Of a DNA stretch of 64,000 bases, positions 17,768-48,240 are shown piece by piece. Made by a program: the position numbers and the translations under genes. The stretch is from positions 32,001 to 96,000 of the IMG/VR virus record IMGVR_UViG_3300032217_000845; one strand, written 5' to 3'. Source of the stretch: a virus. The stretch's first letter is position 1. Each line of letters opens with the position of its first letter. The notes beneath the pieces were generated by a model that worked only from the letters and a program-made list of their open reading frames with translations, searched no databases and was not told the origin of the DNA.

Positions 17768-18015
17768 TTGTAAATCCCGTTTCGTAGCAGTGCCTTCCAC
17801 CGACTTCTAACTACTAATAAGAAGTATAGCACTCGACCGACATAAAGTCAAACACTTAGATACTTCTAAATAGAGAAGACATACTTTTAGAAAAAACGAA
17901 TACAAGCGACTAAGACCCTCTACGGAAAAAACGAATACAACTAAACTCATCAGCCGACACTCTGATTAGTAATAAGAAGTTGCTAAATGTCCGAGGGTGT
18001 GCTACTCTCTCTGGT

Positions 18016-18579
18016 ATGGAAATCACAACACTAACTAGACACGAATACACCACAGAACGAGTTGCCAAGCACACAGGCAGTTTGGAGGGTTGCTATGACG
18101 ACTTCCACGTTGGCGAAGTCAATGGCGTAGTTATCTACATAGGAACTGACTACGCTGGCACGATTGACCCTGCCAAGAACCCTTTGAGGTTCTCGGACTA
18201 CTCTGCGAAAGAGATGAAAGGCTTTCAGGAGTATTGGGGACATTGGGACGCTATCAACAAGCACCTCCACAACAAGACCACAAAACCGGGCTGGGGTCTT
18301 ATCAACCTAGTTGTCTATGGCTTTGTAAATGGCATACAGATTGGCGACCCTACAAATGTTCTACACGCTGTTCCAACAGGTTTCACGCCAGAGGCAAACA
18401 GGATAGACGCAGGGGAACTTGTCTGGGTAGAGGTAGAACAGGCTGTAATGGATTGGCTCAACTATCCAGATAGCCAGCCAACACTTCACGCAATAGCAGA
18501 GGCAAAGCGTAAGGAGGCTGTTGCTCTATTCACAGCGAGCCTAGACCTAATCCAGCCTCTCGCCACGCTGATAAAATAA
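18016..18579 (+). CDS. hypothetical protein (leaderless start)
   Basis: First unit of the island; ATG about 7 nt after a -10-like box. Confidence 0.65.
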   Translation: MEITTLTRHEYTTERVAKHTGSLEGCYDDFHVGEVNGVVIYIGTDYAGTIDPAKNPLRFSDYSAKEMKGFQEYWGHWDAINKHLHNKTTKPGWGLINLVVYGFVNGIQIGDPTNVLHAVPTGFTPEANRIDAGELVWVEVEQAVMDWLNYPDSQPTLHAIAEAKRKEAVALFTASLDLIQPLATLIK

Positions 18580-18674
18580 ATCAGAAATGAACTTGACAAC
18601 TTCGCATTAGTAGTGTAAAGTCGTCAGTAGTTGGAAACCTCCAACGCACAAACTCCGAAAGGACGGAAATACAA

Positions 18675-19154
18675 ATGGCAACAGGAACTATCGTTGGCAA
18701 GGGACTTTACTTAGAGTTCGTTCCAACAGACACCACCACTCCTAGCACTAAGGTAATGCAGGTGCTATTCACACCAGAGGGTATTGACGAGGCTGGCAAC
18801 TATGTTCAGTTCTCAATGCACTCTCGCACTATCTCTGAAACTTCACCTCGCAAACAATGGAGGATTACGAAGTGTGGCACAGAGAATAAAGAGTTGCTTT
18901 CACTTGGCTCTGTTGGACAGGTCAAGGCACAGGAACTCGCTGTCCAAATGGTAGAACGCTTTGAGAAATCACTAGAACGAGCAGTTATGCCAGACAAGAC
19001 AAATCCAACTTGGAAACTTCGGTCTAAGCCAATCGCTGTGGAAATCACTTCCTTTGACTTGTCTGAAATCACAGATTGGAAAACCCCTCTGCCAGCACTA
19101 CGCAGAATACAGAAATGTCGTGTAGCACTTGACTTCCCCGAGAAGTTAGTGTAA
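18675..19154 (+). CDS. hypothetical protein
   Basis: TTGACA promoter and GAAAGGA RBS. Confidence 0.7.
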   Translation: MATGTIVGKGLYLEFVPTDTTTPSTKVMQVLFTPEGIDEAGNYVQFSMHSRTISETSPRKQWRITKCGTENKELLSLGSVGQVKAQELAVQMVERFEKSLERAVMPDKTNPTWKLRSKPIAVEITSFDLSEITDWKTPLPALRRIQKCRVALDFPEKLV

Positions 19155-19189
19155 GGTCAATACTACAAACCGATAAGGACGGAAAACAA

Positions 19190-20212
19190 ATGACTACAAT
19201 CGCACCAAGCACCACTCCAACTACCGAGTTGGACGACATCTATCCAGACCTTGCTAAACTTGTGTATGGAGTTGCTATTCAGACACTAGACGCTGGCTCT
19301 GTGCCAGCAGGTCTTGATAGCCTACTTCCTACTGCTGGTCGTGCTAACCTCCGAGCAAAGGGAGGCGACACCACCACTAGCAAGAAAGCAAAGGTAGAAC
19401 TATTGGCAGAACCAATCACAGGTGCTACCACCTACACCAGACCAAATGGTCGTGAGTATTATGCTCGTCAATGGGGCGAACACTCTGACGTGGAAGTCTG
19501 TCGCAAGGCTCGGGATAACAAGCAGTTTATCCTACTATACGGAAATCCTGGCTGTGGTAAGACAGCACTCGTTGAGGCTAGTTTCGGGGACGACCTATAC
19601 ACCATTATTGGAACAGGCGATACAGAGGTTGGCGACTTCCTCGGTGGCTATGTCCAAACTCCAAGTGGAGGCTTTGAGTGGATTGACGGAGTTCTAACCC
19701 GAGCAGTTGAGGAGGGCAAAGTCCTCCTGATTGACGAGGTTGGTCTGATTGACCCGAAAGTTATGTCGCTGGTCTATGGACTAATGGACGGCAGAGATGA
19801 ACTCGTCATTACCTCCAATCCAGAACGAGGCACTATCAAAGCCAAGCAGGGGTTCTATGTAATCTGTGCGACTAACCCTAACGCTGTTGGAGTTCGTCTA
19901 TCAGAGGCTCTGCTATCTCGCTGTGTTATTCAGGCTGAAATGACTACTGATTGGTCGCTTGCCAAGAAGTTAGGTGTGCCAGCCTCGGCTACCACGCTTG
20001 CTCAAAACCTGTCTAAGAAACAACTAGCAGGTGAAGTATCTTGGTCGCCACAGTTCCGAGAGTTGGAGGCGTTTAGGGACTTGTCCAAGACCTTTGGAAC
20101 TAAGTGGGCAGTTGCCAACCTAATCGCAACAGCACCCGAAATGGATAGACCTGTCGTGATAGATGTGGCTACCCGAGTATTCGGTGAGGATTGCCGACCA
20201 GCCAAGATTTAG
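19190..20212 (+). CDS. AAA+ ATPase, MoxR/CbbQ/CobS-like
   Basis: Walker A GNPGCGKT, Walker B LLIDE, WIDGVLTRAV, ATNP, LSEALLSR. Confidence 0.9.
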   Translation: MTTIAPSTTPTTELDDIYPDLAKLVYGVAIQTLDAGSVPAGLDSLLPTAGRANLRAKGGDTTTSKKAKVELLAEPITGATTYTRPNGREYYARQWGEHSDVEVCRKARDNKQFILLYGNPGCGKTALVEASFGDDLYTIIGTGDTEVGDFLGGYVQTPSGGFEWIDGVLTRAVEEGKVLLIDEVGLIDPKVMSLVYGLMDGRDELVITSNPERGTIKAKQGFYVICATNPNAVGVRLSEALLSRCVIQAEMTTDWSLAKKLGVPASATTLAQNLSKKQLAGEVSWSPQFRELEAFRDLSKTFGTKWAVANLIATAPEMDRPVVIDVATRVFGEDCRPAKI

Positions 20213-20338
20213 CACTCCGTCCTGTGCTAATAGGGGGAGGTCAAAGAAGTTGCGAAATGGACTTGACTTCCCCCGACAACTCTGCTACTATCTTACTAGG
20301 TCAGAAACGCTGACCAGAAAATCAGGAAGGATTTTCTA

Positions 20339-22147
20339 ATGGGACACTATTCCAGACTAGCAACACGCACCAGCACCACGCCTCCTGCTTGGCTCAAAAC
20401 CTGCTCGCAGATTGGCACACTCGCTAACACTTGGGCTAATCGTGGCGACCTCGCTGTCTATGGTGGTGAGGACGCAGGTATGGGTGAGGCTCTCGCTTGC
20501 TTTATTCACAGCACAGCAGAGATTGAGGTCAATCTACCAATCGCTTTCGGTAAGGCAACCACGCCTGAAATGGTGGGCGACCTAACAGAACGCTACAACC
20601 AATACGAGTTCCCCGAGGCAACAGGCGTAATCCTCCACGAGGCGTTTCACGCTAGATACTCGGAGTGGAACTACGAACTTATGGACGCTGAAACTAAGAC
20701 AGAGCCAAAGGTTCGGGACGCTTTTATGTTGTTGGAGGAAAGTCGTATTGAGGGGCTGGCTGTCTATCACTTCCCCGAGAACGCATTATTCCTACGAGCC
20801 TCCTCAATGGGGCTGTCTTTCGCAGAGGCAGAAACCTCTATGGAAAAGATGTCTAAGACAGGTGCTTTCGCACACCTCGCAGGTCTGACCCTTGCCAGAG
20901 TTTCGGCAGGTGTCCTTGACGAGTTTGATGTCGCTGGTATCTACAACAGAGTTGCCGAGGTCTTGGGCGAGAAGTGCCTGAAAACTTTGGAGGCTATCTG
21001 GGTAGAGTTCCAGACACTAGACAACACGCTAAACGCTGACCTACTTCGTGGGATTGACCTTGCTCGTAAATGGATAGAGGCTATCAAGGAACGAGCAGAG
21101 GAACGAGGCGAACCAGCAGAACCAGAGTTCGGTGAGGGTATTCCTATTCCACAGGAACTAGCAGAGGCTCTGTCCGAGATTATGGAGGCTCTGGGTGAGG
21201 CTATGGAGGAAACCAAGTCTGCCACAGCAGAGGCTCTGGGTGAGCAACAGCAGGACGAGAACCTGAAAGAGGAAATCAAGGAACGCCAATCCAAAGCCAA
21301 TACCAAAGAGGAACGCAAGGCAGAGGCAGACAGGGTGTTCTCGCACAACTCCACTCTCGGTCAATCTGGTAGCAGTTCCCGATTGGAAAGCACTCGTCCC
21401 CCGAAAGGTGAGGAACGAGCAGGGGCAGTAAAGTTGGCACAGATGTTAGAGAAAGCCAAGTATGTAGAGAGGTCTGCCACAGAGATAGCAACCACTATTC
21501 CACAGGGTCGCCTACGCACTCGGGCTGTCGTCCAAAAGAAAGCGTTGGAGGCTAAGGGCATTAGGTCTGACCTCCCGACTTGGAGGGCTACCAAGCACAA
21601 GCACACCACAGACCCTATCTTGTCTATCGGTGTAATGGTAGATGTATCTGGCTCTATGGGTTCGGCTATGAACCCTATGGCGAGTATGGCTTGGATTTTA
21701 TCCGAGGCTGGTCGCAGAGTTCAGGCTAGAACTGCTATGGTCTATTATGGCTCGGGTGTCTTTCCAACTCTCAAAGTTGGACAGCACTTGGAGGAGGTCA
21801 AGGTCTGGACAGCACCAGACGGAACAGAGGAGTTTGGTCAGGCTTACAAAGCACTTGACGGAGTTCTCGGTCTGACTTATGCCGAGGGCGTGAAGTTGCT
21901 CGTAATCGTATCTGACGGACACTACCGACCAGACCAAGAGAAACAAGTGGTCAAGGCTCTCGCAGAGTGCGACAAGGCTGGCGTGGGAGTTCTCTGGATT
22001 ACACCTGCCGAGTGCCGAGGTGGAAACACCAGCCTCATTAGTGGGACAAATGCCACGCACCTAAACATTACGGACACAGCCTCAATCGCAACTGCTATCG
22101 GCAGGTCGGCAACCGAGGCTCTGACTAAGATTGGAGGGCGAGTGTAA
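20339..22147 (+). CDS. CobT-like vWA-domain protein with N-terminal HEXXH metallopeptidase
   Basis: ILHEAFHA...LEESRIE; MIDAS DVSGSM, T, VSDG; adjacent to the AAA ATPase. Confidence 0.85.
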   Translation: MGHYSRLATRTSTTPPAWLKTCSQIGTLANTWANRGDLAVYGGEDAGMGEALACFIHSTAEIEVNLPIAFGKATTPEMVGDLTERYNQYEFPEATGVILHEAFHARYSEWNYELMDAETKTEPKVRDAFMLLEESRIEGLAVYHFPENALFLRASSMGLSFAEAETSMEKMSKTGAFAHLAGLTLARVSAGVLDEFDVAGIYNRVAEVLGEKCLKTLEAIWVEFQTLDNTLNADLLRGIDLARKWIEAIKERAEERGEPAEPEFGEGIPIPQELAEALSEIMEALGEAMEETKSATAEALGEQQQDENLKEEIKERQSKANTKEERKAEADRVFSHNSTLGQSGSSSRLESTRPPKGEERAGAVKLAQMLEKAKYVERSATEIATTIPQGRLRTRAVVQKKALEAKGIRSDLPTWRATKHKHTTDPILSIGVMVDVSGSMGSAMNPMASMAWILSEAGRRVQARTAMVYYGSGVFPTLKVGQHLEEVKVWTAPDGTEEFGQAYKALDGVLGLTYAEGVKLLVIVSDGHYRPDQEKQVVKALAECDKAGVGVLWITPAECRGGNTSLISGTNATHLNITDTASIATAIGRSATEALTKIGGRV

Positions 22148-22470
22148 TCGGCTCGCCTCCACAAGAACCCGATAGGGATTGAGCAACCGAGGAGTTTCCG
22201 TCCCCTTTCACCTCAACTGCTCTCGCTATTGGTAGAGAACCCCTGACAACTTCCCCTTTGGTCAGGGGTTTTCGCTTACCCTGACCGACACACAATGTGT
22301 CCAGCAAAAGCATCTCTGCTGGAACTTCGTATCAACTAATCCGAAGTCAGCCTGAGCTGCCGAGATGGTCGCCTTGTATTCGTTTTTTCCAAACCGACAC
22401 GCCTCCTCGCCTACTTGACAACTTCGTATTAGTTATGGTAAGGTCGTAGTATCAACCGAAAGGGAAACAA

Positions 22471-22767
22471 ATGGACGACAGAGAAATAGCAACTAACGCA
22501 TTAGTCCTACTAGGGGCAACTGCCGAGGGCTGTGCCGAGAATGGATTGGCTAATCCAATCCTGTATCAAAGTTTGGAACTAGCAATAGAACTAGCAGAAC
22601 ACCTAGACGAACCTGACCTAGTAGTGCTACTCAAATCAGCGTTGATTGGAGTGGGCGAGGGGATTGAGGAAACTATGGCTATCGTCAAACAAATCAAATC
22701 GCAGTTTGACTTTATGAACACAAGCGAGTATAATCAGGACACGACACCTAACAAGGAGGACAACTAA
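22471..22767 (+). CDS. hypothetical protein
   Basis: Promoter and GAAAGGGAAACAA RBS. Confidence 0.65.
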   Translation: MDDREIATNALVLLGATAEGCAENGLANPILYQSLELAIELAEHLDEPDLVVLLKSALIGVGEGIEETMAIVKQIKSQFDFMNTSEYNQDTTPNKEDN

Positions 22768-23663
22768 TGCCAAACTGGGTCTATACATCTATGGCAGTAT
22801 CAGGTAAGAAAGACGACCTGCTCGCCTTTGCTAAGAAAGCCAGCCAGCAACACGAAACTCTATGGCTCACCGAGAGGTGGAAACGCAACGAGGACGGCAC
22901 GAACACCGAAGTCCCCGAGGAGGAACGCAAGATTGAGAAAGAACTATCTCCACCAAGTCCTATCTCGTTCTGGAACTTCTTAGCACCAACAGAGGAGGAA
23001 CTGCCTTACTACTTTGGACACGCAACCAAGCCAGAGGACGAGGCTGACCCTGACGCAACTTCCGAGGAACGACTAGCAAAGGCTCTGTTGTTTGAGGGCT
23101 CGGGCTGGTATGATTGGAATGTTCGCAACTGGGGCTGTAAGTGGGACGCCAATGACGAGGAACTGGACACCGACCTAGACACGCTACAACCACACGATAG
23201 CCTGTCGTATCGTTTCTCTACGGCTTGGTCTCCTGCCGAGGGCGTGTTTCGTGCTATGACCGAACAGCACCCCGAACTATCCTTTGAGTTCTCTTGCGAG
23301 GAGGAACAGGGCTGGGGCGTGGTCTATGACGGCGAGAACGGCTCGCTATCTGTGGCTGACGAGTGGGAGATACCGAACAGCCACGCTGACTATGTGGCGA
23401 GGGATAACGAGGACGGCTGTGCCTGTGCGAGAGATGACGACCAAGAGGATTGGTATTCCGATTGTCCTAGACCGAGTGTTGAGGTTGTCGTAGTGGTAGA
23501 ACACCGATACAAGATTACAGCACCGACCATAGCCGAGGCTTGGGAACTTGCTCTCAACGGCAACCCTGCTGACCTGACGGCAAGCCTGATAGAGGGCGAG
23601 ACTACTGCCTTTGTGATAGGCGAGGACGGCAAGCGTATCTACCCGACCTTAGAGAACGCATAA
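22767..23663 (+). CDS. DUF1281/YubB ferredoxin-like domain protein
   Basis: MPNW start, WYDWNVRNWGCKW, FSTAWSP, F..EE..G. Confidence 0.75.
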   Translation: MPNWVYTSMAVSGKKDDLLAFAKKASQQHETLWLTERWKRNEDGTNTEVPEEERKIEKELSPPSPISFWNFLAPTEEELPYYFGHATKPEDEADPDATSEERLAKALLFEGSGWYDWNVRNWGCKWDANDEELDTDLDTLQPHDSLSYRFSTAWSPAEGVFRAMTEQHPELSFEFSCEEEQGWGVVYDGENGSLSVADEWEIPNSHADYVARDNEDGCACARDDDQEDWYSDCPRPSVEVVVVVEHRYKITAPTIAEAWELALNGNPADLTASLIEGETTAFVIGEDGKRIYPTLENA

Positions 23664-23707
23664 CGGCTCGCCTTGACTAATCAGACGGATTGGTGTAGGG
23701 TAGCCTT

Positions 23708-23941
23708 ATGAGCAAGAACGCAACCGAGGAGTTTGTAGATGTCCTGATTACTTGGGACACCGAGCAAACCGATACAGATGAAGTCGTAGTAGCAATCGGG
23801 GACGGGTCGGTAGTCTATGACGAGGACTTCGCCTTTGACCCCCGAGTGTATTTCTACTTTGATAACCGAGAGCAGTTTGAGTTAGCAAAGACCAAAATAA
23901 TAGAGGACATAAACTTCCAAATCCTACGGGTTTTGGACTAG
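23708..23941 (+). CDS. acidic hypothetical protein
   Basis: Leaderless start after a TTGACT promoter. Confidence 0.6.
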   Translation: MSKNATEEFVDVLITWDTEQTDTDEVVVAIGDGSVVYDEDFAFDPRVYFYFDNREQFELAKTKIIEDINFQILRVLD

Positions 23942-23958
23942 CAAGAAACGGAGTAAAA

Positions 23959-24192
23959 GTGCCAAAGACAAAGCAGATAGATACTTGGGAGTGGTTCATA
24001 GAACGCTACCAAGAACTCGGCTACAAATCACTAAATCAGTTTGCTATCGCAGAGGGCTTTCAGAAGTCCAGCCTTAGCAGATACTTCCACAAGCAAAGAC
24101 AAATGCCAGCAGATACCTTGGTGGCTGTTTGCCTTGCTCTCAAAGTCAAGCCAGAGGATTTGCTGGTTGCTCTGAACGAGTGGAAACGCTAG
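23959..24192 (+). CDS. XRE/Cro-family HTH regulator
   Basis: SLNQFAIAEGFQKSSLSRY...P.ADTLVAVCLALKV. Confidence 0.8.
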   Translation: MPKTKQIDTWEWFIERYQELGYKSLNQFAIAEGFQKSSLSRYFHKQRQMPADTLVAVCLALKVKPEDLLVALNEWKR

Positions 24193-24428
24193 ACCAACCC
24201 CGATAGGGAAACACCTGAGCAAGTGTTCTAAACTGCTCGCCACAATCTGCCTCCGTTTGTATTCGTTTTTTCCTCGGACTTGCGAAATGTCGGAGGCTGT
24301 GATACACTCGCTAATGTGAAGTTCTCCGATAGGACGACACACCAGAGCAAATGAACTTGACAAAGTTTCGTAAGTCTGGTAAGTTCTAAATGTAAAGCCC
24401 AATGATACTAAGTAGATAAGGAAATCAA

Positions 24429-24806
24429 ATGGCAACTACAAAGAGCACCACCACTAAGGGACAGGTTATCCTGACCACCACCAATGAGCCAGAGGTTCGC
24501 CTCTCGGCAAAGGGACAGAAAGCAGTTCGGGAACTCCGAGACGCACACAACTTGGAAAAGCAAGTTGCCGAAATCGTCAAGGCTAGCAGAGATGTTATCC
24601 TCAACGAACTAGGGAACGAGCAGACCAAGTTTGGAACAGACGCAAAGGGTAAGCGTCTGGTCAAAATCCACCTCATTACCCCGAAAGACCCAACACGCTA
24701 CAACACAGCAGAGTTGGTAGCGTTCCTCGCAAAGACACAGCCAGAGGTTCTGGAAATGTTTAGAGCAGAGGACGCAAAGGCGACCACCCGAGTTCTTACT
24801 CTCTAA
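24429..24806 (+). CDS. hypothetical protein, paralog of 32735 and 44810
   Basis: Coiled coil, then a beta hairpin and an 'L....P....F' tail. Confidence 0.65.
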   Translation: MATTKSTTTKGQVILTTTNEPEVRLSAKGQKAVRELRDAHNLEKQVAEIVKASRDVILNELGNEQTKFGTDAKGKRLVKIHLITPKDPTRYNTAELVAFLAKTQPEVLEMFRAEDAKATTRVLTL

Positions 24807-24986
24807 CGAGAGTAAGCCAGAAAAGCCCCGACAGACAGTTATCCCCTTTCACTCTGTCGGGGTTTTCGCCTATCTGGTTTTGGCTCGTTTGTATTCGTTT
24901 TTTCCTCGCATCTAAAATCTTCGGGTTTGACAACGACACACTAATACGAAGTTGTAAATGTCAGAGGTTTATGGTAGAGTGCTGGT

Positions 24987-25436
24987 ATGGACAAAAGACA
25001 AACTAACAACTGCGAAATCTGTGGCGAGTTATTTACTGACCTACCACTTGACGAGGAGTGTTCTTGCTCAAAGAGAAAGGACGCTGCTTTCTATGTCAAT
25101 AGTGATGGTGGCGAGTTCGTGTGGAACCCTAAACTCAATGAGGACGAGGGAGAGAAACACGAATACTATGTTGTGCGTAATGGGGAAATGCGTATCAAGG
25201 CGACAGATGGCAAGGGTAGAGATTATGTCCTACGCTACACAGAGGACTTAGAGGCTTTCGGTATCACGACAGACGAGCAACTTTACGAGGCAAGCACAGA
25301 CGAGGAAAACTTCTATTGGGATATGAACTCTTGGTTTGAGGTCTGCTGTGATTTTGACGAGGCTTACTCTGATGTCTTTGACGACCTTGACAGAGCCATA
25401 GCAGAGGCAGTAAGATTACGAAAGGAAGGACACTAA
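24987..25436 (+). CDS. hypothetical protein
   Basis: N-terminal CxxC; leaderless start. Confidence 0.65.
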   Translation: MDKRQTNNCEICGELFTDLPLDEECSCSKRKDAAFYVNSDGGEFVWNPKLNEDEGEKHEYYVVRNGEMRIKATDGKGRDYVLRYTEDLEAFGITTDEQLYEASTDEENFYWDMNSWFEVCCDFDEAYSDVFDDLDRAIAEAVRLRKEGH

Positions 25437-25723
25437 TGAAACTACGAATAGCGTTTGGCGACACTCTTAGAGAGATACGACAAGACCAACACAGAACTCT
25501 TAGAGAGGTGTCTGTAAAGTCTGGCGTGGCACTTGGCTATGTATCGGAAGTAGAGAGAGGGCAGAAAGAGGCTTCATCGGAAGTCTTGGAAAGCCTGACC
25601 AACACGCTTGGCGTGTCTATGGCTGACTTCCTAATCCTTACAGCGTTGCGTCTAGGTGCTGTCGCTGTCCCCGACACAGCAGAAACCCTACTTGACGAAT
25701 ACACCGACCTTGTGGTAAGATAA
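25436..25723 (+). CDS. clgR: ClgR-like XRE transcription regulator
   Basis: GDTLREIR..Q.RTLREVS..SGVALGYVSEVERGQKEASSEVL closely resembles actinobacterial ClgR. Confidence 0.75.
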   Translation: MKLRIAFGDTLREIRQDQHRTLREVSVKSGVALGYVSEVERGQKEASSEVLESLTNTLGVSMADFLILTALRLGAVAVPDTAETLLDEYTDLVVR

Positions 25724-25742
25724 GGGAAAGGAAAGGACGACA

Positions 25743-25952
25743 ATGAGCAGACAAGTTTATTTTGTAATCGGTGTTGATTTAGACGACAAAACAGTTTTCA
25801 TAGATGACGGCACATTTACGGCTCGCTTTGGTAAAGACGAGCAGGTATGGGACACCGATAAACAAGAGTGGCGAGAATACGAGGGCGAGGAACAAGAGGA
25901 ATACGACCTCGCCTTAGAAATCCTCAACACCGAGAAGTTGAGGGACGACTAA
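25743..25952 (+). CDS. hypothetical protein
   Basis: GAAAGGA RBS. Confidence 0.6.
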   Translation: MSRQVYFVIGVDLDDKTVFIDDGTFTARFGKDEQVWDTDKQEWREYEGEEQEEYDLALEILNTEKLRDD

Positions 25953-26257
25953 TGGAATACGACCTATACTCACCCGAGAGGAACTTCTCGGCTATCCCTG
26001 ACCTGAAACTTGTAAAGATTACAGGGGACGACAGGGACAGAAGTATTCACTTCCTCTGGCGAGGCGATAGACAATGGCTCGCTATGAGTAAGGATAATCC
26101 TTACGAGGATAACTGCTGGCTTGTAGTCAAGACCGACTACACAGACGAGTTTCAGGAGTTTCTTGACGAGGAACTCTCTGGCTACGATAGCCTAGAAAGC
26201 ACCTTTGAGTTATCGGACATTATTCCAACCGAATACTCAATAGAGTTTGATAACTAA
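25952..26257 (+). CDS. acidic hypothetical protein
   Basis: TAATG coupling to the previous gene. Confidence 0.6.
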   Translation: MEYDLYSPERNFSAIPDLKLVKITGDDRDRSIHFLWRGDRQWLAMSKDNPYEDNCWLVVKTDYTDEFQEFLDEELSGYDSLESTFELSDIIPTEYSIEFDN

Positions 26258-26261
26258 ATAG

Positions 26262-26522
26262 ACTTGCTTGATACACGCTGAACCATTTTGGTGCGTGGGC
26301 AGAACTAACTACCTGCCTATTATCAAGGAAACCGAGTGAAATCTCGCTAAACTACGGACAACACGCTCGGTGGTGAATACGCCTCTGGTGGAAGTAGCAG
26401 GTCGGGTCTAGAACTGACCAAGAGTTTATTCTCAATGCGAAATAGCACAATGACGCAAAGTAGCCCCTTGTGTGTTCGTCCGAACCTAAGACCAGATAGC
26501 CATAACGCTTTCTGGTCTTTCT
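26262..26522 (+). ncRNA. candidate structured non-coding RNA
   Basis: ORF-free, several nested stems, ends in a terminator (see findings). Confidence 0.45.
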
Positions 26523-26673
26523 CTTTTTGGTGAGGTGTTGTATTCGTTTTTTCTCTACGCCTACTGTGGAAAGAGGGAACTTCGCATTAGTGTTTCGTTC
26601 TTGACAAATGTCAGAGGAGTATGCTAGTATCACTATGTAGTCAGAAAGTCTGACACAGAAAGGGTCTAGTCCT

Positions 26674-27159
26674 ATGGGATTGGATATGTATTTAGAGGCT
26701 CGCAAGTATGTAAGTGGATACTCTCACAGACCTATTGACGAGCAGAACGAGTATGAGGAAGTGCTGAACTCGGTAGGTATGTCAAGAACAGACCTAACAG
26801 CAGAGGCAAGTCCTTTCGCTAATGTAAGTATAAATGTTGCTTATTGGCGTAAGGCTAATCAGATACACGCTTGGTTCATCAACAACTACGCCAAAGATGG
26901 TGTAGATGATTGTAGCCCTGTCCATCTTGGCGAGAGATACCACCTTAGTATTCTAAGAAACCTCTGCCAAGAGGTCATTGACGACCACAGCAAAGCAGAG
27001 GAACTTCTGCCTGTTTCATCTGGCTTCTTCTTTGGGTCAGACGAGTATGGCGAATACTACTTCCAAGACTTAGAGAACACCATTGAGCAGTTGGATAAGT
27101 TGCTCTCTAATCCTAAGTTTGCTGAGGGCTGGGACTTCATCTACCAAGCAAGTTGGTAG
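26674..27159 (+). CDS. conserved phage protein (MGLDMYL / YWRKANQIH family)
   Basis: MGLDMYL, AYWRKANQIHAWF, LLP..GFFFGS..Y.EYY, YQASW. Confidence 0.8.
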   Translation: MGLDMYLEARKYVSGYSHRPIDEQNEYEEVLNSVGMSRTDLTAEASPFANVSINVAYWRKANQIHAWFINNYAKDGVDDCSPVHLGERYHLSILRNLCQEVIDDHSKAEELLPVSSGFFFGSDEYGEYYFQDLENTIEQLDKLLSNPKFAEGWDFIYQASW

Positions 27160-27336
27160 CCACAAACTAAGCACGACCCCTTAGCACACGCTAGGGGGTT
27201 TTGCTTTACCTGTTTGCTGGCGAGGTGTATTCGTTTTTTCAGACGACACGGCACGGCACGGGAACTTGACTAAACAAATGAACTATGATACTATGTAGAT
27301 ACAACGGGCGAACAGGAAGTAGCCTGAAAGGGATAA

Positions 27337-27708
27337 ATGGAAACTACAACTATTACGGGTCTGGTAGCAACCACACCACGACACCTAGTATCAGCAGACG
27401 GCTTGCCGATTACTTCTTTCCGATTGGCGAGCAGTAATCGCAGGTTTGACCGAGCCACTATGGAGTGGGTGGACGGCGAGACTAATTGGTATACGATTAC
27501 CTCTTTCCGCACACTCGCAATCAACACCGCTACATCTATCAGCAAGGGCGACCGCATTGTTGTATCAGGCACACTTCGTATTCGTGATTGGGACAACGGC
27601 GAACGGGTAGGAACTAGCGTTGAGTTAGAGGCGAGCAACATTGGACACGACTTAGCGTGGGGGACTACCACCTTTGTCCGAACCGTTCATAAAGCAGACA
27701 CCGAATAA
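27337..27708 (+). CDS. ssb: single-stranded DNA-binding protein (actinobacterial short SSB, no acidic tail)
   Basis: ITGLVATTP...FRLAS..RRFDR...WVDGETNWY...SKGDRIVVSG.LRIRDW...IGHDLAWG. Confidence 0.9.
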   Translation: METTTITGLVATTPRHLVSADGLPITSFRLASSNRRFDRATMEWVDGETNWYTITSFRTLAINTATSISKGDRIVVSGTLRIRDWDNGERVGTSVELEASNIGHDLAWGTTTFVRTVHKADTE

Positions 27709-27885
27709 CCGAACGGCTCGCCTAACGGCGTGGGATTGGCAAGCCTAACGGCTTGCCTTTCTGCGTTTGACGGCAAGCCTATTGGCGAGCAGACGGCAAG
27801 CCTAACGGGTGTGTCAGGCTTGACAAAGACCGACCGCTATGGTAGGCTAGCAGAGCAGACAACCCTGCCAACCGATAGGACAGAA

Positions 27886-28128
27886 ATGACAACCGCACTA
27901 CCCGAACTAACCGAGATGACCACCAAGACCGACCAACCGATAGTCGCACTCTACAACCGAGACGACAGACTAACGGGTATCGTAAATGGCTGGAAAGTCG
28001 CTGACGGAGTAATGGAAATGGACGAGAGTATCAAGCGAGCAGTAGCGACTAGCGAACTGACTATGGCTGAACTCGTTGAGATTGACCAGAGTATCGCCAG
28101 ACTTCGCAACTTGCGTGGAACTCTCTAA
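27886..28128 (+). CDS. hypothetical protein
   Basis: TTGACA promoter and AGGA RBS before ATG 27886. Confidence 0.6.
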   Translation: MTTALPELTEMTTKTDQPIVALYNRDDRLTGIVNGWKVADGVMEMDESIKRAVATSELTMAELVEIDQSIARLRNLRGTL

Positions 28129-28304
28129 ACAAAACTAGCCAAGTGGAAACACTTGGTTTTAGTTTTAGCCCGAAGTGTATTCGTTTTTTCCCTGCGTAAA
28201 TTTTGCTGAAAATAAAATCCTAAATGAGTTTGATTTTGTCGGGAGTATGTGGTAGGGTATAAATGTAGTCAGAAATACTGATTATCCAATCACTCTGAAA
28301 GGGT

Positions 28305-28667
28305 GTGGTAAAAGTGGAAACACTAAACCAAGTAGTAATAACAAAGTCGGTCAATGGCGTAGAAGTTGCCACGCTATCTGAACTAGGGATTTTGCTAGGC
28401 GTAAAGCCAAGCACTATCTTTGTCTGGATAGATAAATACAAGAACTTCCCTAAGCCTGTTGCCGAAATCAAAGGTGCTGGTCGTAATGGGCGTTCTCGCT
28501 TGTTCCCGATTGACGCTGTTCAGGTGTGGCACAAGAAACACATTACGACACGCAAGGCTAACGAATGGACAGGTATTCTTTCCAAGTTGAGCCAAATCTC
28601 AAAGGCTAGTCCTGCCACTTACAAAATCATTCTGGAAATGATTGACGAAGCGTCAGGTCGCAAGTAG
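28305..28667 (+). CDS. AlpA/excisionase-like HTH protein, paralog of 30739
   Basis: NGVEVATLSELG..LGV..STIFVW....NFPKP. Confidence 0.7.
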   Translation: MVKVETLNQVVITKSVNGVEVATLSELGILLGVKPSTIFVWIDKYKNFPKPVAEIKGAGRNGRSRLFPIDAVQVWHKKHITTRKANEWTGILSKLSQISKASPATYKIILEMIDEASGRK

Positions 28668-28847
28668 CCACACGACACTAGACTTACCCCCTGCTAATCA
28701 CAGGGGGTTTTCTGGTTTTGGGACACGACTAGTTTGTATTCGTTTTTTCCATCACGACACACTTCGCACTAACACGCTTGACTTTATTTAGAAACTATGC
28801 GATAATAGAGATGTTGTCGGGAAAGGCTCGGCACGGAAAGGGATAAA

Positions 28848-29171
28848 GTGGGCGACAGGTCTGCGATTATCATTGAGAGTGAAAGGTTCATCACGCCTAT
28901 CACGCTATACGGACACTGGTCGGGCAGGAACAACCTTGCTGCTGTGGCTAGTGTGTTGGAAACTACGGACAGGGTTGGCGACCCGTCTTATCTCACGGCT
29001 CAACTGTTTTACAAGTTTGCTGTGGAACTTGGCAAGTATGACGGAAATCTGTCTTTCGGTATTGACGCTTTCGGTGGGACACCACAGGAAATAAATGCGA
29101 CTATGGACACCGATACGATTGTCGTAAATGCCGATAATGGAACTTGGCGTTGGGCGATACCCGTAGAGTAA
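28848..29171 (+). CDS. hypothetical phage protein
   Basis: MGDR...LYGHWSG...DPSYLTAQL. Confidence 0.7.
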   Translation: MGDRSAIIIESERFITPITLYGHWSGRNNLAAVASVLETTDRVGDPSYLTAQLFYKFAVELGKYDGNLSFGIDAFGGTPQEINATMDTDTIVVNADNGTWRWAIPVE

Positions 29172-35047: not shown

Positions 35048-35446
35048 ATGGCAGTAATAGATTGGGACGAAGTAGATAGTGGTCTAGTAGGTGCTAAGGC
35101 TATTGCCTTTGATACTTGCCACAAAATCTATGTCCTTATGGACGATGAGCAGGTTGCCGAAATGCGTGGCTACGGATACGGCGATGAACCAGATAGTTTC
35201 TACACTTGCGATGAAATGTCGCATAGCGAAATGCTGGAAAAGCTAAAAGAGTGGTTTGAGAAGTCTTGCCCCCTGAAGTTCATACAAGCAGTAGAAACTA
35301 ATCACACCGACCCTAACGCTGGTTTTACCACGCTGATTGAGCAGGGTGCTACCGAATACGAACTTTGCTACATCTGTGGAGCCGAAGGTTGCGAAGGTGA
35401 GTGCGAAGACGAAGACGACTACGAAGACGAAGAAGACGAAGAGTGA
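35048..35446 (+). CDS. acidic hypothetical protein
   Basis: AFDTCHKIY...WFEKSCPLKFI; consensus RBS. Confidence 0.7.
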   Translation: MAVIDWDEVDSGLVGAKAIAFDTCHKIYVLMDDEQVAEMRGYGYGDEPDSFYTCDEMSHSEMLEKLKEWFEKSCPLKFIQAVETNHTDPNAGFTTLIEQGATEYELCYICGAEGCEGECEDEDDYEDEEDEE

Positions 35447-42073: not shown

Positions 42074-42094
42074 TGTGGATAACCCTGTGGATAA
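42074..42094 (-). promoter_or_regulatory. two perfect DnaA boxes (TTATCCACA)
   Basis: TGTGGATAA-CCC-TGTGGATAA. Confidence 0.65.
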
Positions 42095-42514: not shown

Positions 42515-42785
42515 AACAAGGAAGCGACGGCTAACTTGGAGTATGGCTGAACAACCTCAATCGTCAGATGGGGGGGTAAGGCAATGTCGGATACTAGCGT
42601 ATCGTCTTAGCGGACAAACGGCAGGTGTGCTGAAAAGCGGGCTTAGAACCGAACTGACTTGGCATTGGTGGTAAAACGCAATCCACCTACTCAACTACAA
42701 ACATAAACGGGCTGGTGTGGCGTTTATGTGGCTAACATTAGTGGCTACCAGACAGAACCCTTAGCGGAAACGCTAGGGGTATTTC
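42515..42785 (+). ncRNA. candidate ncRNA unit (alternatively a 43 aa peptide)
   Basis: Own promoter (42480-42509) and terminator (42756-42785); no long ORF; several stems. Confidence 0.4.
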
Positions 42786-42929
42786 TGTTTTTGCGATGTC
42801 TGCGGTTGCGGTATGTATTCGTTTTTTCCTAGCCCCTCACGAGAGGCGACACACGCACGGCAGGTGGAGTTGCTTTGTTTAGGTGTTAGTGGTATGATTA
42901 CTTTGTAATCAAGCAACGAAAGGGAAAAA

Positions 42930-43298: not shown

Positions 43299-43501
43299 TT
43301 AGCAACTAGGGAAGTCCCTTAGCCAGAAATGGTTAGGGGGCTTTCTTGCTTTTGGGCTGTGGCTGTGGGTTAGGTGTATTCGTTTTTTCCTAGCCTCAAC
43401 TGCGACACGACACGCATACGATAATGACTTGACTTTCTGTTATCTGTGTGTTAGAATACTTATGTATTCAAAGGGAATACAAAAACGAAAGGGAAACACA
43501 A

Positions 43502-43708
43502 ATGTCAGTAAAAACTCTAGTAGTAGAAATCCACTACCAAGACGGCAGACCAACTCTAAAGCCAATCTACGAGTGCCACAGCGTAGAAAAGTTTGAGGAG
43601 TTTGTGGCTTGGCACAAGGAAAACCTACCAATGAGAACCACCACAACTCTCAAAGCCTACGACTACAACTCAACCACCCCTGAACTAACAGAGATGATTA
43701 TCAAGTAA
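43502..43708 (+). CDS. hypothetical protein
   Basis: Consensus RBS before ATG 43502. Confidence 0.6.
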   Translation: MSVKTLVVEIHYQDGRPTLKPIYECHSVEKFEEFVAWHKENLPMRTTTTLKAYDYNSTTPELTEMIIK

Positions 43709-43894
43709 GTTAGGCAACCGAGAACCCCCTACGAAAGTGGGGGGTTTTCTTTTGTCTGCGGGTGCGTGTGTTAGTGCGAAGTTGTAGAGTGTGAAATCGG
43801 TAGCGTAAGAAAAAACGAATACACTACGGACACGACAACACGGGGGCGAGTGTGGCTACTTGACTTTTGCTGTGGTAAGTGGTAGAATAGTATT

Positions 43895-44326
43895 ATGGCA
43901 AAACTTCTAGTGCTACAAGGCTTAGTGGCTTCGGGCAAATCAACTTACGCTAAGGGACTTCTATCTATTCACCCTGCGGGCTACGCTATGCGTATCAACA
44001 ATGACGACTTATCTACGGCTATGTTTGGCTCTGCGTTTGGCGGTGGTGCTAACACGGCTCAACTGCTAGGCAAACTTCGGGCGGACTTAGTTCGTCTAGC
44101 GTTTCGCAATGGTTTTGAGTTAGTCATTATGGACAACACAAACCTAAACCCGAAAGCCGTCAAGTCATTAGAAAGATTGGCGGAGAGTTGCGGTGTTGAG
44201 TTTGAGTTGGACAACTCGTTTCTAAGTGTGCCTATTGCGGAGTGCTTGCGTAGAAATGCTCTGCGTGAAAACCCTGTTCCCGAAAAGGTGGTTTTAGAAA
44301 TGGCTCGCCTTATTGGAGATGATTGA
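43895..44326 (+). CDS. P-loop kinase (AAA_33/polynucleotide kinase-like)
   Basis: GLVASGKST, INND, IMDNTNL, ECLRRNALR..PVPEKVV. Confidence 0.85.
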   Translation: MAKLLVLQGLVASGKSTYAKGLLSIHPAGYAMRINNDDLSTAMFGSAFGGGANTAQLLGKLRADLVRLAFRNGFELVIMDNTNLNPKAVKSLERLAESCGVEFELDNSFLSVPIAECLRRNALRENPVPEKVVLEMARLIGDD

Positions 44327-44390
44327 CTTTTGCGTTTCTATGTGGTAGAATACTTTTGTAGTCAAAGGGATTGACTACTGAAAGGGAAAG

Positions 44391-44591
44391 ATGAACAAGT
44401 TCGTTATCACAAAGTCAATAGCAGTAGTCAAGGCAGTTGCTCGTGGTGTTGCGGTAGCAACCGAAAGCAAGGCGACCACAAACCGAAAGGCGAAAGTTGC
44501 TAACGAGGTAGCCAAGTGCGTTGCCGACTTAGGACTAAACCCTGTTGCGAGTGTGAAGCGTGTTGTGCGTATGGTGGAAACCCTGCGGTAA
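44391..44591 (+). CDS. small basic protein
   Basis: Promoter and RBS. Confidence 0.6.
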   Translation: MNKFVITKSIAVVKAVARGVAVATESKATTNRKAKVANEVAKCVADLGLNPVASVKRVVRMVETLR

Positions 44592-44809
44592 GACTTACAA
44601 AGCAAACCCGTCTAGCGAAAGTTAGGCGGGTTTTCTTTTGCTTGCGGTGTTTGCTTCGTGCGTTGTTGTATTCGTTTTTTCCTAAGTGCTTGCCTAGTGC
44701 GACACGCTAGAAAGAAAGTTTGTAAATGAACTTGACTTTTCTGCGGTAGCCTGATAGACTACAAAGGTAGTCAAGGCAAAGGGCTAAGACACAGATGAAA
44801 GGGAAACAA

Positions 44810-45139
44810 ATGACCACAGCAACACAGACCACCGCAAAGGTAATCTCTAAGGTTGAGTTGAGTGCTAAGGGCGTAAAGGCTCTACAAGCGTTCAACAAAG
44901 CAAAGGAAGCGGAAGCAAAGGTAAAGGCAACTAAGTCAAAGGCGGAAGCAATTTTGCGGACAGAGTTGGGCGAAACCCCGAACACACAAGCAACTATTCA
45001 GGGCGTAGTTGTTGCCAGCGTAGTTGGAAGCAAGAATACTTCGTTTGACCGAGATGCTCTAAAAGAGTTTCTAGGTGAAGAGAAATACAACGAGTTCCTG
45101 CGGACAACCGAATACACTTACATCAAAACCGCTAACTAA
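44810..45139 (+). CDS. hypothetical protein, paralog of 24429 and 32735
   Basis: Coiled coil plus FDRDALKE...Y..F tail. Confidence 0.7.
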   Translation: MTTATQTTAKVISKVELSAKGVKALQAFNKAKEAEAKVKATKSKAEAILRTELGETPNTQATIQGVVVASVVGSKNTSFDRDALKEFLGEEKYNEFLRTTEYTYIKTAN

Positions 45140-45328
45140 GTTAGCAAGCGAGCAACCGCTAACCGAAAGGTTGGCGGTTGTTTGCGTTTTTGTTTTGCGG
45201 TGTTGCGTTTCGTGCGTGTGTTCGTGTGTCTGCGGTAAGCGTGGAAAAAACGAATACACTTTCGCCAGCCAGCCACGCCACGAAAGCGAGTGTTTGCTTT
45301 TGTCTGCGGTTAGTGTTAGAGTGTAAGT

Positions 45329-45466
45329 ATGGACATTAGATTTTATGCGTGGAAAGCAGTCGCTAAGGTTGCTAGGTATTTCAGCAGAGTTGGGTATAAC
45401 CTATTTAGGCGAGCCGAACACTTCTCTTATCTTTCAGGTAAGAAAGCAAGCAAGTATAAGGCTTGA
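45329..45466 (+). CDS. small basic amphipathic peptide (45 aa)
   Basis: Leaderless ATG after TTGCTT..TAGAGT. Confidence 0.45.
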   Translation: MDIRFYAWKAVAKVARYFSRVGYNLFRRAEHFSYLSGKKASKYKA

Positions 45467-45524
45467 CTTTACTGCGGTAAAGTGATAGAATAGTATTACC
45501 AGACAACACTAAGAAAGGGTGAAA

Positions 45525-45767
45525 ATGTCTAGCAACTATCCAGACGGCTCTATGATGGGTTCAGGTATTTACGCAAGCGAGGTTTCGTATGAAGAGTTTG
45601 AGTGCGAAAATGAAGAGTGCGGTAAGACCAATGAAGCAGGTGAAACTTCTACTGACGATTGGGGAAACTACTCTATCGAGTGTGAGTTCTGCGGTGCTAA
45701 CTATTTAGAGAGTTCTCTAAGTGATGACCGAGATGACTACTTAGCAGACTACGACCCGAATAACTAA
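45525..45767 (+). CDS. acidic zinc-ribbon protein
   Basis: SNYPDG start; CENEEC...CEFC. Confidence 0.65.
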   Translation: MSSNYPDGSMMGSGIYASEVSYEEFECENEECGKTNEAGETSTDDWGNYSIECEFCGANYLESSLSDDRDDYLADYDPNN

Positions 45768-46242
45768 ATAGACTTATGCGGTAAGGCGGGGAAAGCCGAA
45801 CGCAACTTTACATAACTAAATAAACTTCTGCCTAACTTGTTTCCCCCTTTCCGTTAGGCAGAGAAAGAGAAACGGGACTGCCCCCTAACTAACCCGTTTC
45901 TCCTAAACCGCTAGGCGTTTATTCGTCTAGCGGTTTTGTCTTTGTCTGCGGTGTTTGTTTTTGTGTGTTTGTTGTATTCGTTTTTTCTTGTGCTTGTGAA
46001 ACCGCTTCCACTACGCAACTTTGTATTAGTAGGTTGCTTCGCTTCCTTCGCCTTCGCTTCGTGTTGTTGCTTCGCTTCGCTTTCGTTCGCTTCGCTTCTG
46101 CGGTGCTTCGCTTAGTGAGTTGTTTCGTTATCATTTTGTTATAAAGTCGTTATCGTCTTTGTAATCTTATTACTTGACTTTTATTCTGCGGTAGAGTAGA
46201 ATAAGAGTATGTAGAAAATCTACATAGAAAGAAAAGGGAAAG

Positions 46243-46461
46243 ATGAACAACAAGGCAAGAGATACCCGAGCAAGTTGGGGACTAGTTTCATTTATGTTGG
46301 CATTGTTTATTGGTGCTGACGCTTTGGGAAACATAGACACTACGGACTATTACCACGACAGAGCATTAGGTTTCTTTGTTCTGTTCTTAGGTATTACTTT
46401 CGTGCTTTACACTTGGAACGCTATTCAGTATGCGGTATTCCTAAAACGCAATAGACGCTAA
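46243..46461 (+). CDS. two-TM membrane protein
   Basis: Promoter and RBS; hydrophobic. Confidence 0.6.
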   Translation: MNNKARDTRASWGLVSFMLALFIGADALGNIDTTDYYHDRALGFFVLFLGITFVLYTWNAIQYAVFLKRNRR

Positions 46462-46499
46462 CAACTTCACAACTTAGCAACCGCCTAGCCGAGAAAGGT

Positions 46500-48240
46500 T
46501 AGGCGGTTCTTTGTTTTTGTTTGTGCTTCTTTCTTTTGCTTCGCTTCGTGCTTCGTGAGAGGTTGAGAAAAAACGAATACGCTTCGCAACTTTGTATTAG
46601 TGTTTGTCTGCGGTGCTTCGCTTCTAGGTTCTTTCTTTGCTTTGCTTCGCTTCGTAGTTCTTTCGTGCTTCTTTGTCTTAGTTGCTTCTTTGTCTGCGGT
46701 GCTTGACTTTCTTGCTTCTTTGTTCTATGTTTGTTTGCTTCGCTTCGCTTCGCTGTTATCATTTCGTTATTATTCTGTTTGACTTCTTTGCTTCTTTGTT
46801 CTATGCTTATTCTTTGTTGTTATCATTTCGTTATCTTTGTATGTTCTTGACTTTGTTAGTCGTTTGTTCTATGCTTACTCTTTGTCTGCGGTAATGCTTC
46901 TAAGGGGTTGTTTGTTATCATTTCGTTATAAAGGTATAAAAAAAGTGCCTTTGTAGAATAAGCAAGGCGACACTTTCAGGGATAGGCGTGTGTGTTTGTA
47001 TCATCTAAGGGGTCGTGGCTTCTATGAGCCTTATAGAGCCTTTTGAGATAGGGGACTTTCAGGATTATTTGGGTTCGTTATCTGTTCGTTATCTGTCTGT
47101 TATCTGTTCGTTATGTGCGGTAATGCTTCTAAGGGGTATTTCCTTGCTTCGCTTCTCTTAGTTAGTTGTTCTCTTTCCCTGTGCTTACTTGCTTAGTTCT
47201 ATGCGGTAATGCTTCTACTGCTTGACTTATGTGCTTCTATGTAGTAGAATAGTGTTATCTATTCGTTATCTAATAGACTTGACTTTATTAGAATACTTTG
47301 ATAGAATAGTATTGTCTGCCTCTTTGACCTGACTTGACTTAGTTAGGTTAGGCTTCCCTAACTTACTTCCCTGCGGTAATGCTTCTACAAGTTAGTTAGT
47401 GCTTCGCTTCGCTTCCCTACTTAGTTAGTTGTTTGACTTATTCGCTTATGTCTGTTAGAATAGTGTTATCTATTTGTTATCTAACTTACTTGACTTTGTT
47501 ATAGTTTTATGTTATAATAGTAATGTCTATCTATTGACTATCTCAACCCCTACCCCCTGCCTACTTAGGTTAGGCTTACCTTACCTACCCCCTGCCTAGC
47601 CCTGTGCGGTAATGCCCTTATAGGCTTACTATTCTCTGCGGTAATAGTGGTAATGGTTCGTTATCATTTCGTTATCTATTAGTTAGTGCTTGGCTTTGCT
47701 GGGTTAGTCTAGGTTAGGTTAGCCTTACCTAACTAACTAAGTATTAGTTAGTGCTAACTAGGTATGACTTACCCCCTTGTATGTATTACCTACCTACCTA
47801 TACCCCCTACCCCTACCCCCTTATGCTTACCTATCTCTGCGGTAAGTGCTTTATAGGTTGTTTGTATCCTAATGACTTACTTACCTAGGTAAAGACTTTC
47901 ATCACTTAGATAGTCATTGACTTACTTAGTCATTGACTTACTCACTTAGTCATTGACTTACTCATCTACTCATCTACTCATCTACCTTTGTAGTGGATAG
48001 AGTGCTTAGTGCTAAGTTGATAATCGTTAGTGTCCTAATGACTTACTTACCTAGGTAAATAATAGTTAGTTAGTGCCTAGTTCGTTAGTGTCCTAATGAT
48101 AGTCGTTCGTATCCTAATGATTTCATAAACTAATAAACATAATCGTTTGTATCCTAATGATTTAGATAGTAAAGAGAGCATTGACTACCTTACATAACAA
48201 TAAATAATAATGTTATGTCAAGTAAGAATTTTCGTAGCAT
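46500..48240. repeat. ORF-free repeat region (possible genome end, terminal-repeat boundary or origin)
   Basis: GCTTC runs, GTTATC..GTTAT repeats, TGCGGTAATGC x5, TAGTCATTGACTTACT x3, TCCTAATGA x5, tandem promoters. Confidence 0.8.

Follow-up and report, generated by a model that had tools for sequence, protein, structure and literature searches.

The 64,000-nt window analyzed here (bases 32,001–96,000 of IMG/VR record IMGVR_UViG_3300032217_000845, a single 125,776-bp tailed-phage contig) contains a sharply bounded island from which short palindromes and other words resembling restriction sites have been purged. The island spans positions 17837–48226 on the + strand (30,390 nt; positions are those of the window unless stated otherwise), makes up 24% of the 125.8-kb contig (30.4 kb) and carries ~48 mostly small open reading frames (ORFs) arranged as single-gene units. 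Because the purged words match enzyme recognition sites and because related phages purge differing sets of them, we interpret the pattern as restriction-site avoidance, and we hold it very likely that restriction enzymes are the cause of the purge. On the basis of synteny, expression signals and analogy, we also lean toward the view that this block is the portion of the genome exposed first and that it lies within a long terminal repeat.

Thirteen four-base palindromes were counted (AATT, ACGT, AGCT, ATAT, CATG, CCGG, CGCG, GCGC, GGCC, GTAC, TCGA, TGCA and TTAA). Together they number 24 in the island and 3,480 across the 95.4 kb of contig outside it (0.8 versus 36.5 per kb), and the contig has only one island of this kind. 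CATG, CGCG, GCGC, GGCC, GTAC and TTAA are absent from it; the survivors are AATT (7), TCGA (5), AGCT (3), TGCA (3), ACGT (2), ATAT (2) and CCGG (2). The original prediction had described such a purge with scattered exceptions. The purge proves stronger than was claimed and the exceptions are real, falling at 18107, 18286, 22355, 32424/32436 and 45676, with AATT at 42928, 42941, 42955 and 43236. The palindromes it listed are all purged, but its list missed ATAT, which is purged too.

The boundaries are as abrupt as had been proposed. A TCGA at 17833 is the last site before the island and an AATT at 48227 the first after it, both between ORFs. At 17.8 kb the number of sites per kb drops from 43 to 4, and at 48.2 kb it climbs from 0 to 24. 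Base composition in the island is close to that of its flanks. Two null models were applied: (i) synonymous codon shuffling within each of the 48 island ORFs (N = 300), which gives 660.9 ± 19.7 expected sites (minimum 607) where 15 are observed and (ii) a second-order Markov expectation in 3-kb bins, for which the observed/expected ratio is 0.01–0.04 in bins lying fully inside the island, 0.19 in the bin straddling the right edge and 0.61–0.95 elsewhere. The depletion therefore persists once codon usage is taken into account and is limited to the island. It extends to island DNA outside the ORFs, which has 8–9 sites versus 472 expected, the 1.8-kb non-coding right border included. A long gene such as that of the vWA protein (20339–22147) is free of sites from end to end, as the original prediction had noted.

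Three further four-base palindromes behave differently. CTAG stays abundant, also as predicted, with 146 island copies (4.8 per kb, equal to the rate outside) and 86 copies in island ORFs against 88.7 expected from codon shuffling. TATA is present in 45 copies; only 10 of these are in ORFs, where 43.8 are expected, and the survivors are mainly promoter −10 boxes. GATC does not occur anywhere in the contig, where ~338 copies are expected from the second-order Markov model. Its absence is genome-wide rather than island-specific, which corrects the original prediction.

Purged words were compared with the 617 distinct sites of Biopython's enzyme catalogue, 498 of which have an expectation of at least 5. 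Among these 498 sites, 116 are at ≤10% of expectation, and the same holds for 75 of the 118 palindromic ones. Words that contain no four-base palindrome are lost as well. Relative to the rate outside the island, GAATC is seen 0 times for 57 expected, GACTC 0/55, GTAAC 0/74, GTCAC 0/49, GCAGC 6/114, GCCGC 1/40 and GGACC 1/35. Asymmetric words, BsrI-, FokI- and SfaNI-like sites among them, show the same behavior (ACTGG 5/102, GCATC 4/85, GCTCC 1/65, GGATG 2/41 and CTGRAG 1/63). Written with degenerate letters, the purged list also includes GANTC, GTNAC, GCWGC, CCWGG and ACNGT. Under the codon-shuffle null, 17 five-base words and 14 further six-base words are at ≤15%, bringing the total to ~45 purged words (the 13 four-base palindromes, GATC, the 17 five-base and the 14 six-base words), and 56 of the 64 six-base palindromes are absent from the 30.4-kb island. 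Matches to a catalogued 5-bp site are found for 15 of the 17 purged 5-mers but only for 45 of the 440 other 5-mers (Fisher p = 1.2e-12). The two purged 5-mers without a catalogue match are CAGTC and the A/T homopolymer. CAGTC/GACTG is found 0 times in island ORFs versus 33.4 expected and may mark an undescribed specificity; A5/T5 runs are avoided in island coding DNA (4 versus 36.5 by codon shuffling).

A structural constraint apart from restriction, for example avoidance of self-pairing DNA, could be suspected since palindromes make up most of the purged words. We find this hardly credible. Hairpin-forming inverted repeats are enriched in the island (51 terminator-like sites versus 18.1 ± 4.6 expected), asymmetric words are purged, and several symmetric words are not: observed/expected ratios are 0.73 for CTNAG as a whole, 0.71 for TCNGA and 1.06 for GCNNGC, and CTAG and CTWAG are likewise retained. 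The palindromes that are lost also differ among relatives, as described below. The structural explanation is thus already contradicted by hairpins, asymmetric words, unpurged symmetric words and relatives, and the match of purged words, asymmetric ones included, to the catalogue indicates that avoidance targets restriction sites and not palindromes as such.

Selection against these words overrides protein sequence. Nine dipeptides (NM, MQ, MH, HM, HV, DM, YM, CT and WP) force a purged word whatever codons are used. Island proteins contain only 6 of them, where residue shuffling predicts 36.9 ± 5.9 (none of 500 shuffles gave a number as low), versus 43 in flank proteins for 43.8 expected.

Relatives of the phage in IMG/VR show the same architecture with different words. 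We took 32 loci around homologues of the vWA gene, and 80 of the 483 loci found around the terminase gene; L numbers are our locus labels. A palindrome was scored as purged at ≤10% of expectation, and landmarks were mapped in 22 distinct vWA loci. At least three palindromes are purged beyond a shared syntenic point in 16 of these 22 loci and none in 3, and the shared edge lies just after a segment holding a homologue of gene 1 of Microbacterium phages and an endolysin gene. The sets of words vary by lineage: (i) L003 has purged 12 words and kept AATT and TTAA; (ii) L006 has purged 10 and kept CGCG, GCGC and TCGA; (iii) in L009 and L011, AGCT is missing everywhere and other words are purged in the island alone and (iv) in L024, CCGG and GATC are missing everywhere and TGCA is kept in abundance. 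AGCT is the genome-wide avoided word in L018 and L031 as well. The same word may be island-only or genome-wide depending on lineage, as seen for GATC in L006 versus the phage studied here, and CTAG and TATA are purged in none of the 22 loci. On the right side, the edge is equally sharp and lies 3–5 kb upstream of the terminase gene in L041, L044, L051, L057 and L067, while ~9 of 33 loci have no edge there. In L103, L105, L115 and L087–L092, the depleted zone crosses the terminase gene to 2–3 kb beyond its start; the purge edge therefore does not simply follow the boundary between early and late genes. Across these relatives, the gene-1 homologue is 54–82% identical, the gene for an AAA ATPase 49–74% and the vWA gene 39–52%.

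A shared edge combined with lineage-specific word sets is what changing host restriction–modification repertoires would be expected to cause, and it speaks against explanations based on structure, on a chimera or on nucleases of the phage. The last of these follows an idea proposed by Davison for T5, in which first-step DNA avoids sites of an early phage nuclease, protein A1 (accessible text of bioRxiv 10.1101/866236). Applied here, the island would shun the sites of early nucleases by which the phage destroys host DNA, rather than those of host enzymes. Most island proteins belong to no recognized Pfam family, which leaves room for such enzymes. Nevertheless, ~45 purged words would demand dozens of phage nucleases, close relatives purge differing sets, and the rest of the genome would still have to arrive later. 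Scans of island ORFs (31 by PHROGs and 48 by Pfam) revealed no nuclease family, and there is no A1/A2 annotation among these ORFs, a statement about annotations made without direct comparison to the T5 A1/A2 proteins. We consider self-avoidance improbable.

Foreign origin, with the block derived from another phage that avoids these words throughout, or an assembly chimera, is conceivable for a metagenome contig with both ends in a repeated fibre-like gene. The order of gene 1, endolysin and island recurs in L003, however, whose 129-kb contig carries terminase locus L048, and Actinomycetia phage DSL-LC01 is annotated with the same order through to the terminase. A second assembly crosses the left edge with 0 differences, and the absence of GATC and the base composition are alike on both sides of the island. 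The chance that the block is foreign or chimeric seems to us very slight, and restriction-site avoidance by the phage itself remains the explanation we adopt for the purge.

The organization of the island is that of an early-type gene region. All likely island genes lie on the + strand, and a cassette array (22376–45990, + strand) is built so that each gene is its own unit. A cassette comprises, in order, a GC-rich terminator hairpin with a T-run, the 16-mer TGTATTCGTTTTTTCC, a CGACACG word, a promoter of the form TTGACTTT-N17-TAnAAT, a short hairpin in the 5′ untranslated region (5′UTR), the ribosome site GAAAGGGAAAC and the ATG with its ORF. Strict matches to a sigma-70-like promoter on the + strand number 18 in the island and 4 outside. 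We read the block as an early-type gene region with its own host-type promoters. The ribosome-site/5′UTR word GAAAGGG(AAAC) is found 29 times on the + strand of the island (22452–44814) and nowhere else in the contig.

The 16-mer (core GTATTCGTTTTTT) has 41 copies, 31 on the plus and 10 on the minus strand, all within 17891–46580. The original prediction held that the purge edges roughly match the limits of a motif array plus a repeat region, and indeed every one of these copies lies inside the island. The copies sit in gaps between ORFs, those on the plus strand between a terminator and the next promoter. The left purge edge (17834–17979) is intergenic and bears two minus-strand copies (17891 and 17926), which are 55–90 nt inside the edge. 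The 16-mer looks like a putative protein-binding site that works in either orientation. The right border (46462–48226, + strand) is non-coding, T-rich and dense in repeats, and is still purged. Its repeats are one-directional: GCGGTAATGC (5 copies), TCCTAATGA (5 copies) and GCTTCGCTTC (11 copies), the last with 10 copies inside the border and the first copy, at 46036, just upstream. Promoter-like sites are found in the border at 47222, 47279, 47433 and 47490.

The location of the block relative to the genome ends can be approached through synteny with Microbacterium phages. Both contig ends (contig positions 1–200 and 125577–125776) fall inside the repeated fibre-like gene, which has an internal repeat of ~70 nt. 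The contig probably broke at this repeat and may be slightly incomplete, and the physical genome ends are therefore not readable from the assembly. The gene-1 homologue (14692–15627, + strand) is 35% identical to gene 1 of Microbacterium phage Pumpernickel (E 6e-48), and an endolysin gene (15842–16693, + strand; PHROG endolysin families) follows; both are outside the purge, the endolysin gene with normal palindrome content. In Microbacterium phage records, the gene-1 homologue starts at nt 62–98 and is found at two places per record, in 7 of 7 linear records; Cece annotates it as terminase small subunit. The final 10,096 nt of the linear Pumpernickel record are identical to nt 9,868–19,963, implying, from gene coordinates, a direct terminal repeat of ~19,963 bp that holds gene 1, an endolysin gene, ~50 small + strand genes and a non-coding gap at its end. 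By synteny, the segment from ~14.2–14.7 kb to ~48.2 kb would correspond to a ~34-kb terminal repeat collapsed in the assembly.

Note that the island and the terminal segment do not coincide exactly, since the repeat placed by synteny starts ~3.2 kb to the left of the purge edge. The original interpretation is supported in part, as regards an early-type block, restriction avoidance and synteny with a repeat. That this segment enters the cell first, by staged injection, would be a possible reading of these features, and the island is not exactly the terminal segment. The intervening DNA at 14.69–17.77 kb is unpurged (per-word Markov ratios of 0.5–1.8, most words >1; GATC 0). We dismissed an apparent palindrome-rich zone at 15–17.8 kb (65 per kb) as mostly compositional, its words being near or somewhat above Markov expectation.

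Assembled contigs from 20 runs, 4 of which were compared with 9001–29000, provided the data on genome ends. In the probable source run, Logan contig depth, which is not copy number, is 24.2 for ~6.8–19.9 kb versus 33–34 for two island contigs, a step that hints at, and would fit, a 2× repeat that begins near 14.0 kb. Joints at 17939/24251, 24905/28735 and 26558/28171 were rejected as repeat artefacts, with sides of 20–26 nt located at 16-mer copies. Contig ends gather near gene 1 and immediately upstream of the terminase gene, an observation that we set aside because strain variation beside conserved genes explains it equally well. In a repeat search of related IMG/VR records other than L003, G001 (153.7 kb) has one gene-1 copy; gene 1 at both contig ends of G003 is read as a circular-assembly overlap, and neither record is informative about a terminal repeat. 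The DSL-LC01 paper makes no mention of terminal repeats.

Phage T5 offers the closest precedent for a first-exposed block. According to the accessible text of PMC10644984, T5-like phages withstand restriction of Types I, II and III except through sites in the first-step-transfer DNA of the terminal repeat, and a non-coding repeat region marks the first-step border. The likeness has three parts: (i) early genes gathered next to or within a long direct terminal repeat, which in the phage studied here is placed by synteny; (ii) sites missing from the block and kept in the rest of the phage studied here, where in T5 restriction counts only inside the block and (iii) a long non-coding, repeat-rich border region (iss at 9140–10149 in T5; 46462–48226 here, with several polar repeat families). 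There are also differences. The block is ~3 times longer here, both in bases and in share (30.4 kb and 24% of the contig versus 7.9% in T5), it consists of one-directional single-gene cassettes where T5 has two divergent operons, and the host is probably a Gram-positive actinobacterium, as suggested by two WhiB genes.

Other systems share parts of the pattern. In Murciavirus (Autographiviridae), Type I restriction acts only via motifs in the first-injected region, and the authors state a general principle and cite depletion of restriction–modification targets in plasmid leading regions (accessible text of PMC12455610). The resemblance to T7-like phages, Murciavirus and conjugative plasmids lies in the focusing of restriction selection on first-exposed DNA, where anti-defence genes sit (same source), but a single Type I motif is involved in Murciavirus and ~45 Type II/IIS-like words here. 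The island promoters all share one direction, like those of the T7 early region; unlike in T7, each island gene ends in a terminator. No phage RNA polymerase family was found among the scanned ORFs of at least 90 amino acids, several large proteins being without a match.

Genome-wide restriction-site avoidance is known in phages, with Type II palindromes under-represented relative to composition. The depletion seen here is of the same nature but comes in two tiers, with GATC avoided genome-wide and all other words only within a single quarter of the genome that has sharp limits. The Microbacterium phages Pumpernickel, Cece, Big4, Zooman and A3Wally share the order of gene 1, endolysin, small + strand genes and then terminase and portal. 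They differ in that the ~20-kb direct terminal repeat of Pumpernickel is unpurged, while the repeat of the phage studied here is placed by synteny alone. The principle is thus known (accessible text of PMC10644984 and PMC12455610), but its extent, the number of words and the host differ here. We found no literature description of such islands in actinophages.

Several observations weigh against the block being first-exposed DNA in a terminal repeat. First, gene 1, the endolysin gene and two small ORFs, which take up the initial 3.2 kb of the repeat as placed by synteny, are unpurged, and this tip needs an extra assumption, either that the other end leads or that loss of the tip is tolerated. 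The 48.2-kb end may lead, with transfer pausing at 17.8 kb. Alternatively, the 14.6-kb end may lead; its tip carries only late genes, of which the opposite end would hold a second copy, and the phage might therefore survive losing it. Residual sites are asymmetric, with five in the first 1.7 kb of the island and none in the last 2.5 kb, but they are too few to decide which repeat end leads. Second, one contig runs unbroken across 9001–19895, and no ends are visible in the contigs of the 4 of 20 runs compared with 9001–29000. Third, the cultured relatives Pumpernickel and Sixama have no purge although a terminal repeat is present, and a terminal repeat alone therefore does not yield a purge; for the same reason we dropped the cultured relatives as a model with known ends. 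DSL-LC01 also has no island in its first 50 kb. Fourth, the T5 first-step DNA is not generally purged: its observed/expected ratio is 0.83 versus 0.96 for the rest, and four-base palindromes occur at 67.9 per kb in the block versus 63.2 in the rest. The original prediction had invoked T5 first-step DNA as lacking some restriction sites; restriction does act through first-step sites (accessible text of PMC10644984), but the comparison does not extend to a general purge. Fifth, paired DnaA boxes are described in the T5 stop region (accessible text of bioRxiv 10.1101/866236), whereas no DnaA-box cluster is found at 46.4–48.3 kb; TTWTNCACA occurs 15 times in the contig. Finally, the scanned island ORFs include no known anti-restriction family.

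Two observations lie beside these points. Two perfect DnaA-box-like words TGTGGATAA are located at 42074 and 42086, 12 nt apart, in an island intergenic gap. In positions 1–50000 of DSL-LC01 (55% GC), ATAT and TTAA are both absent and GATC is abundant (408 copies).

Staged entry is not the only means by which most of the genome could keep its sites. The whole genome might enter at once, with non-island DNA coated, compartmented or modified and the early block left bare for host RNA polymerase, so that it relies on the absence of sites. The phage encodes possible agents of such shielding: a Dps/ferritin-like DNA-binding protein (55308–55799; PHROG 3636, Pfam Ferritin), whose gene directly follows the portal gene and which could coat or protect DNA, large proteins of unrecognized kind in the head module, one N6/N4 DNA methylase and one glycosyltransferase. 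However, we know of no way in which a coat or modification could spare a single 30-kb stretch and stop at its borders with a precision of a few hundred nt. No hypermodification genes were seen among Pfam-scanned ORFs of at least 90 amino acids, and genome-wide avoidance of GATC speaks against blanket protection. We judge shielding without staged entry unlikely, though less so than the other alternatives to restriction acting on a first-exposed block.

In the explanation we favor, the island would hold the early genes with which an uncultured freshwater actinobacterial siphophage takes over its host, and Type II and IIS recognition sites of the host population would have been removed from it word by word. 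Host RNA polymerase would transcribe the island while its DNA lies unprotected in the cell, until phage functions neutralize restriction. The other 76% of the genome would enter later, either stop-and-go like T5 or at the pace of transcription like T7, or would be out of danger for some other reason, and so could keep its sites; GATC would be the exception, avoided everywhere. The entry order, the stop signal and an anti-restriction function encoded in the island are all inferred. A bolder version, which we put forward only tentatively and regard as doubtful, is that a widespread clade of lake actinophages performs a ~30-kb first-step transfer, the largest known, from a ~34-kb repeat, and that proteins of the block silence nearly all Type II restriction except for GATC cutters.

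Two groups of proteins are candidate restriction silencers, namely the conserved MoxR-like ATPase with its vWA partner and numerous small, very acidic proteins. The former, an AAA_5 (MoxR-like) ATPase and a 602-amino-acid vWA protein, are encoded by the largest and best conserved island genes (19190–22147, + strand; Pfam AAA_5 9e-18, weak VWA_CoxE). Many island products are very acidic (pI ~4.1, D+E up to 30%). Small and extremely acidic proteins are encoded at 35048–35446, 45519–45767, 25743–25952 and 17450–17767 (D+E 26–30%, K+R 2–12%); these are candidate DNA mimics, compatible with DNA-mimic inhibitors. Recognizable island products other than the ATPase and vWA proteins are an Api92-like domain protein, three to four HTH proteins, SSB, a dual-specificity phosphatase, a kinase-like P-loop protein, DUF3846, WGR and DUF6011.

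Beyond the island, unpurged DNA starts with genes for an HTH_23 protein, an NlpC/P60 protein, the terminase large subunit (51419–52804) and the portal (53488–55296), together spanning 48227–55296 on the + strand. The phage also encodes a siphovirus-type tail part, DNA polymerase A, a primase-helicase and a class II ribonucleotide reductase, and a tRNA-Thr (TGT) gene is located at 792–864. The portal is 70% identical to that of DSL-LC01 and 57–64% identical to those of Microbacterium phages Pumpernickel, Cece, Big4 and Zooman; Arthrobacter and Gordonia phages provide further portal relatives. When the island and the right flank were compared by megablast with 50,697 phage records, neither gave a match. 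Near-identical DNA is present in metagenome-run contigs of 15 studies, labeled mostly as freshwater or lake water. Two WhiB regulators are encoded and the nearest relatives are actinophages, and the host is therefore inferred to be an actinobacterium, presumably a Gram-positive freshwater one.

The island is an extreme natural case of a principle known from model phages, namely that restriction selects mainly on the DNA that is exposed first. Its extent is unusual, as it takes in a quarter of the genome and ~45 words and constrains even neighboring amino acids, a pattern that suggests long exposure in slow-growing lake bacteria. It also implies broad protection of the other three quarters against Type II enzymes, of which few inhibitors are known to us, and the means by which this 76% of the genome would evade such enzymes are the most interesting point raised by these data. 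If the bolder version given above is true, the list of purged words would be a readout of the restriction repertoire of the uncultured host population (~45 specificities), and such lists would predict restriction specificities of uncultured hosts more generally. The sharp edges would likewise provide a marker, readable from sequence alone, by which early regions and probable terminal repeats could be located in phage contigs from metagenomes.

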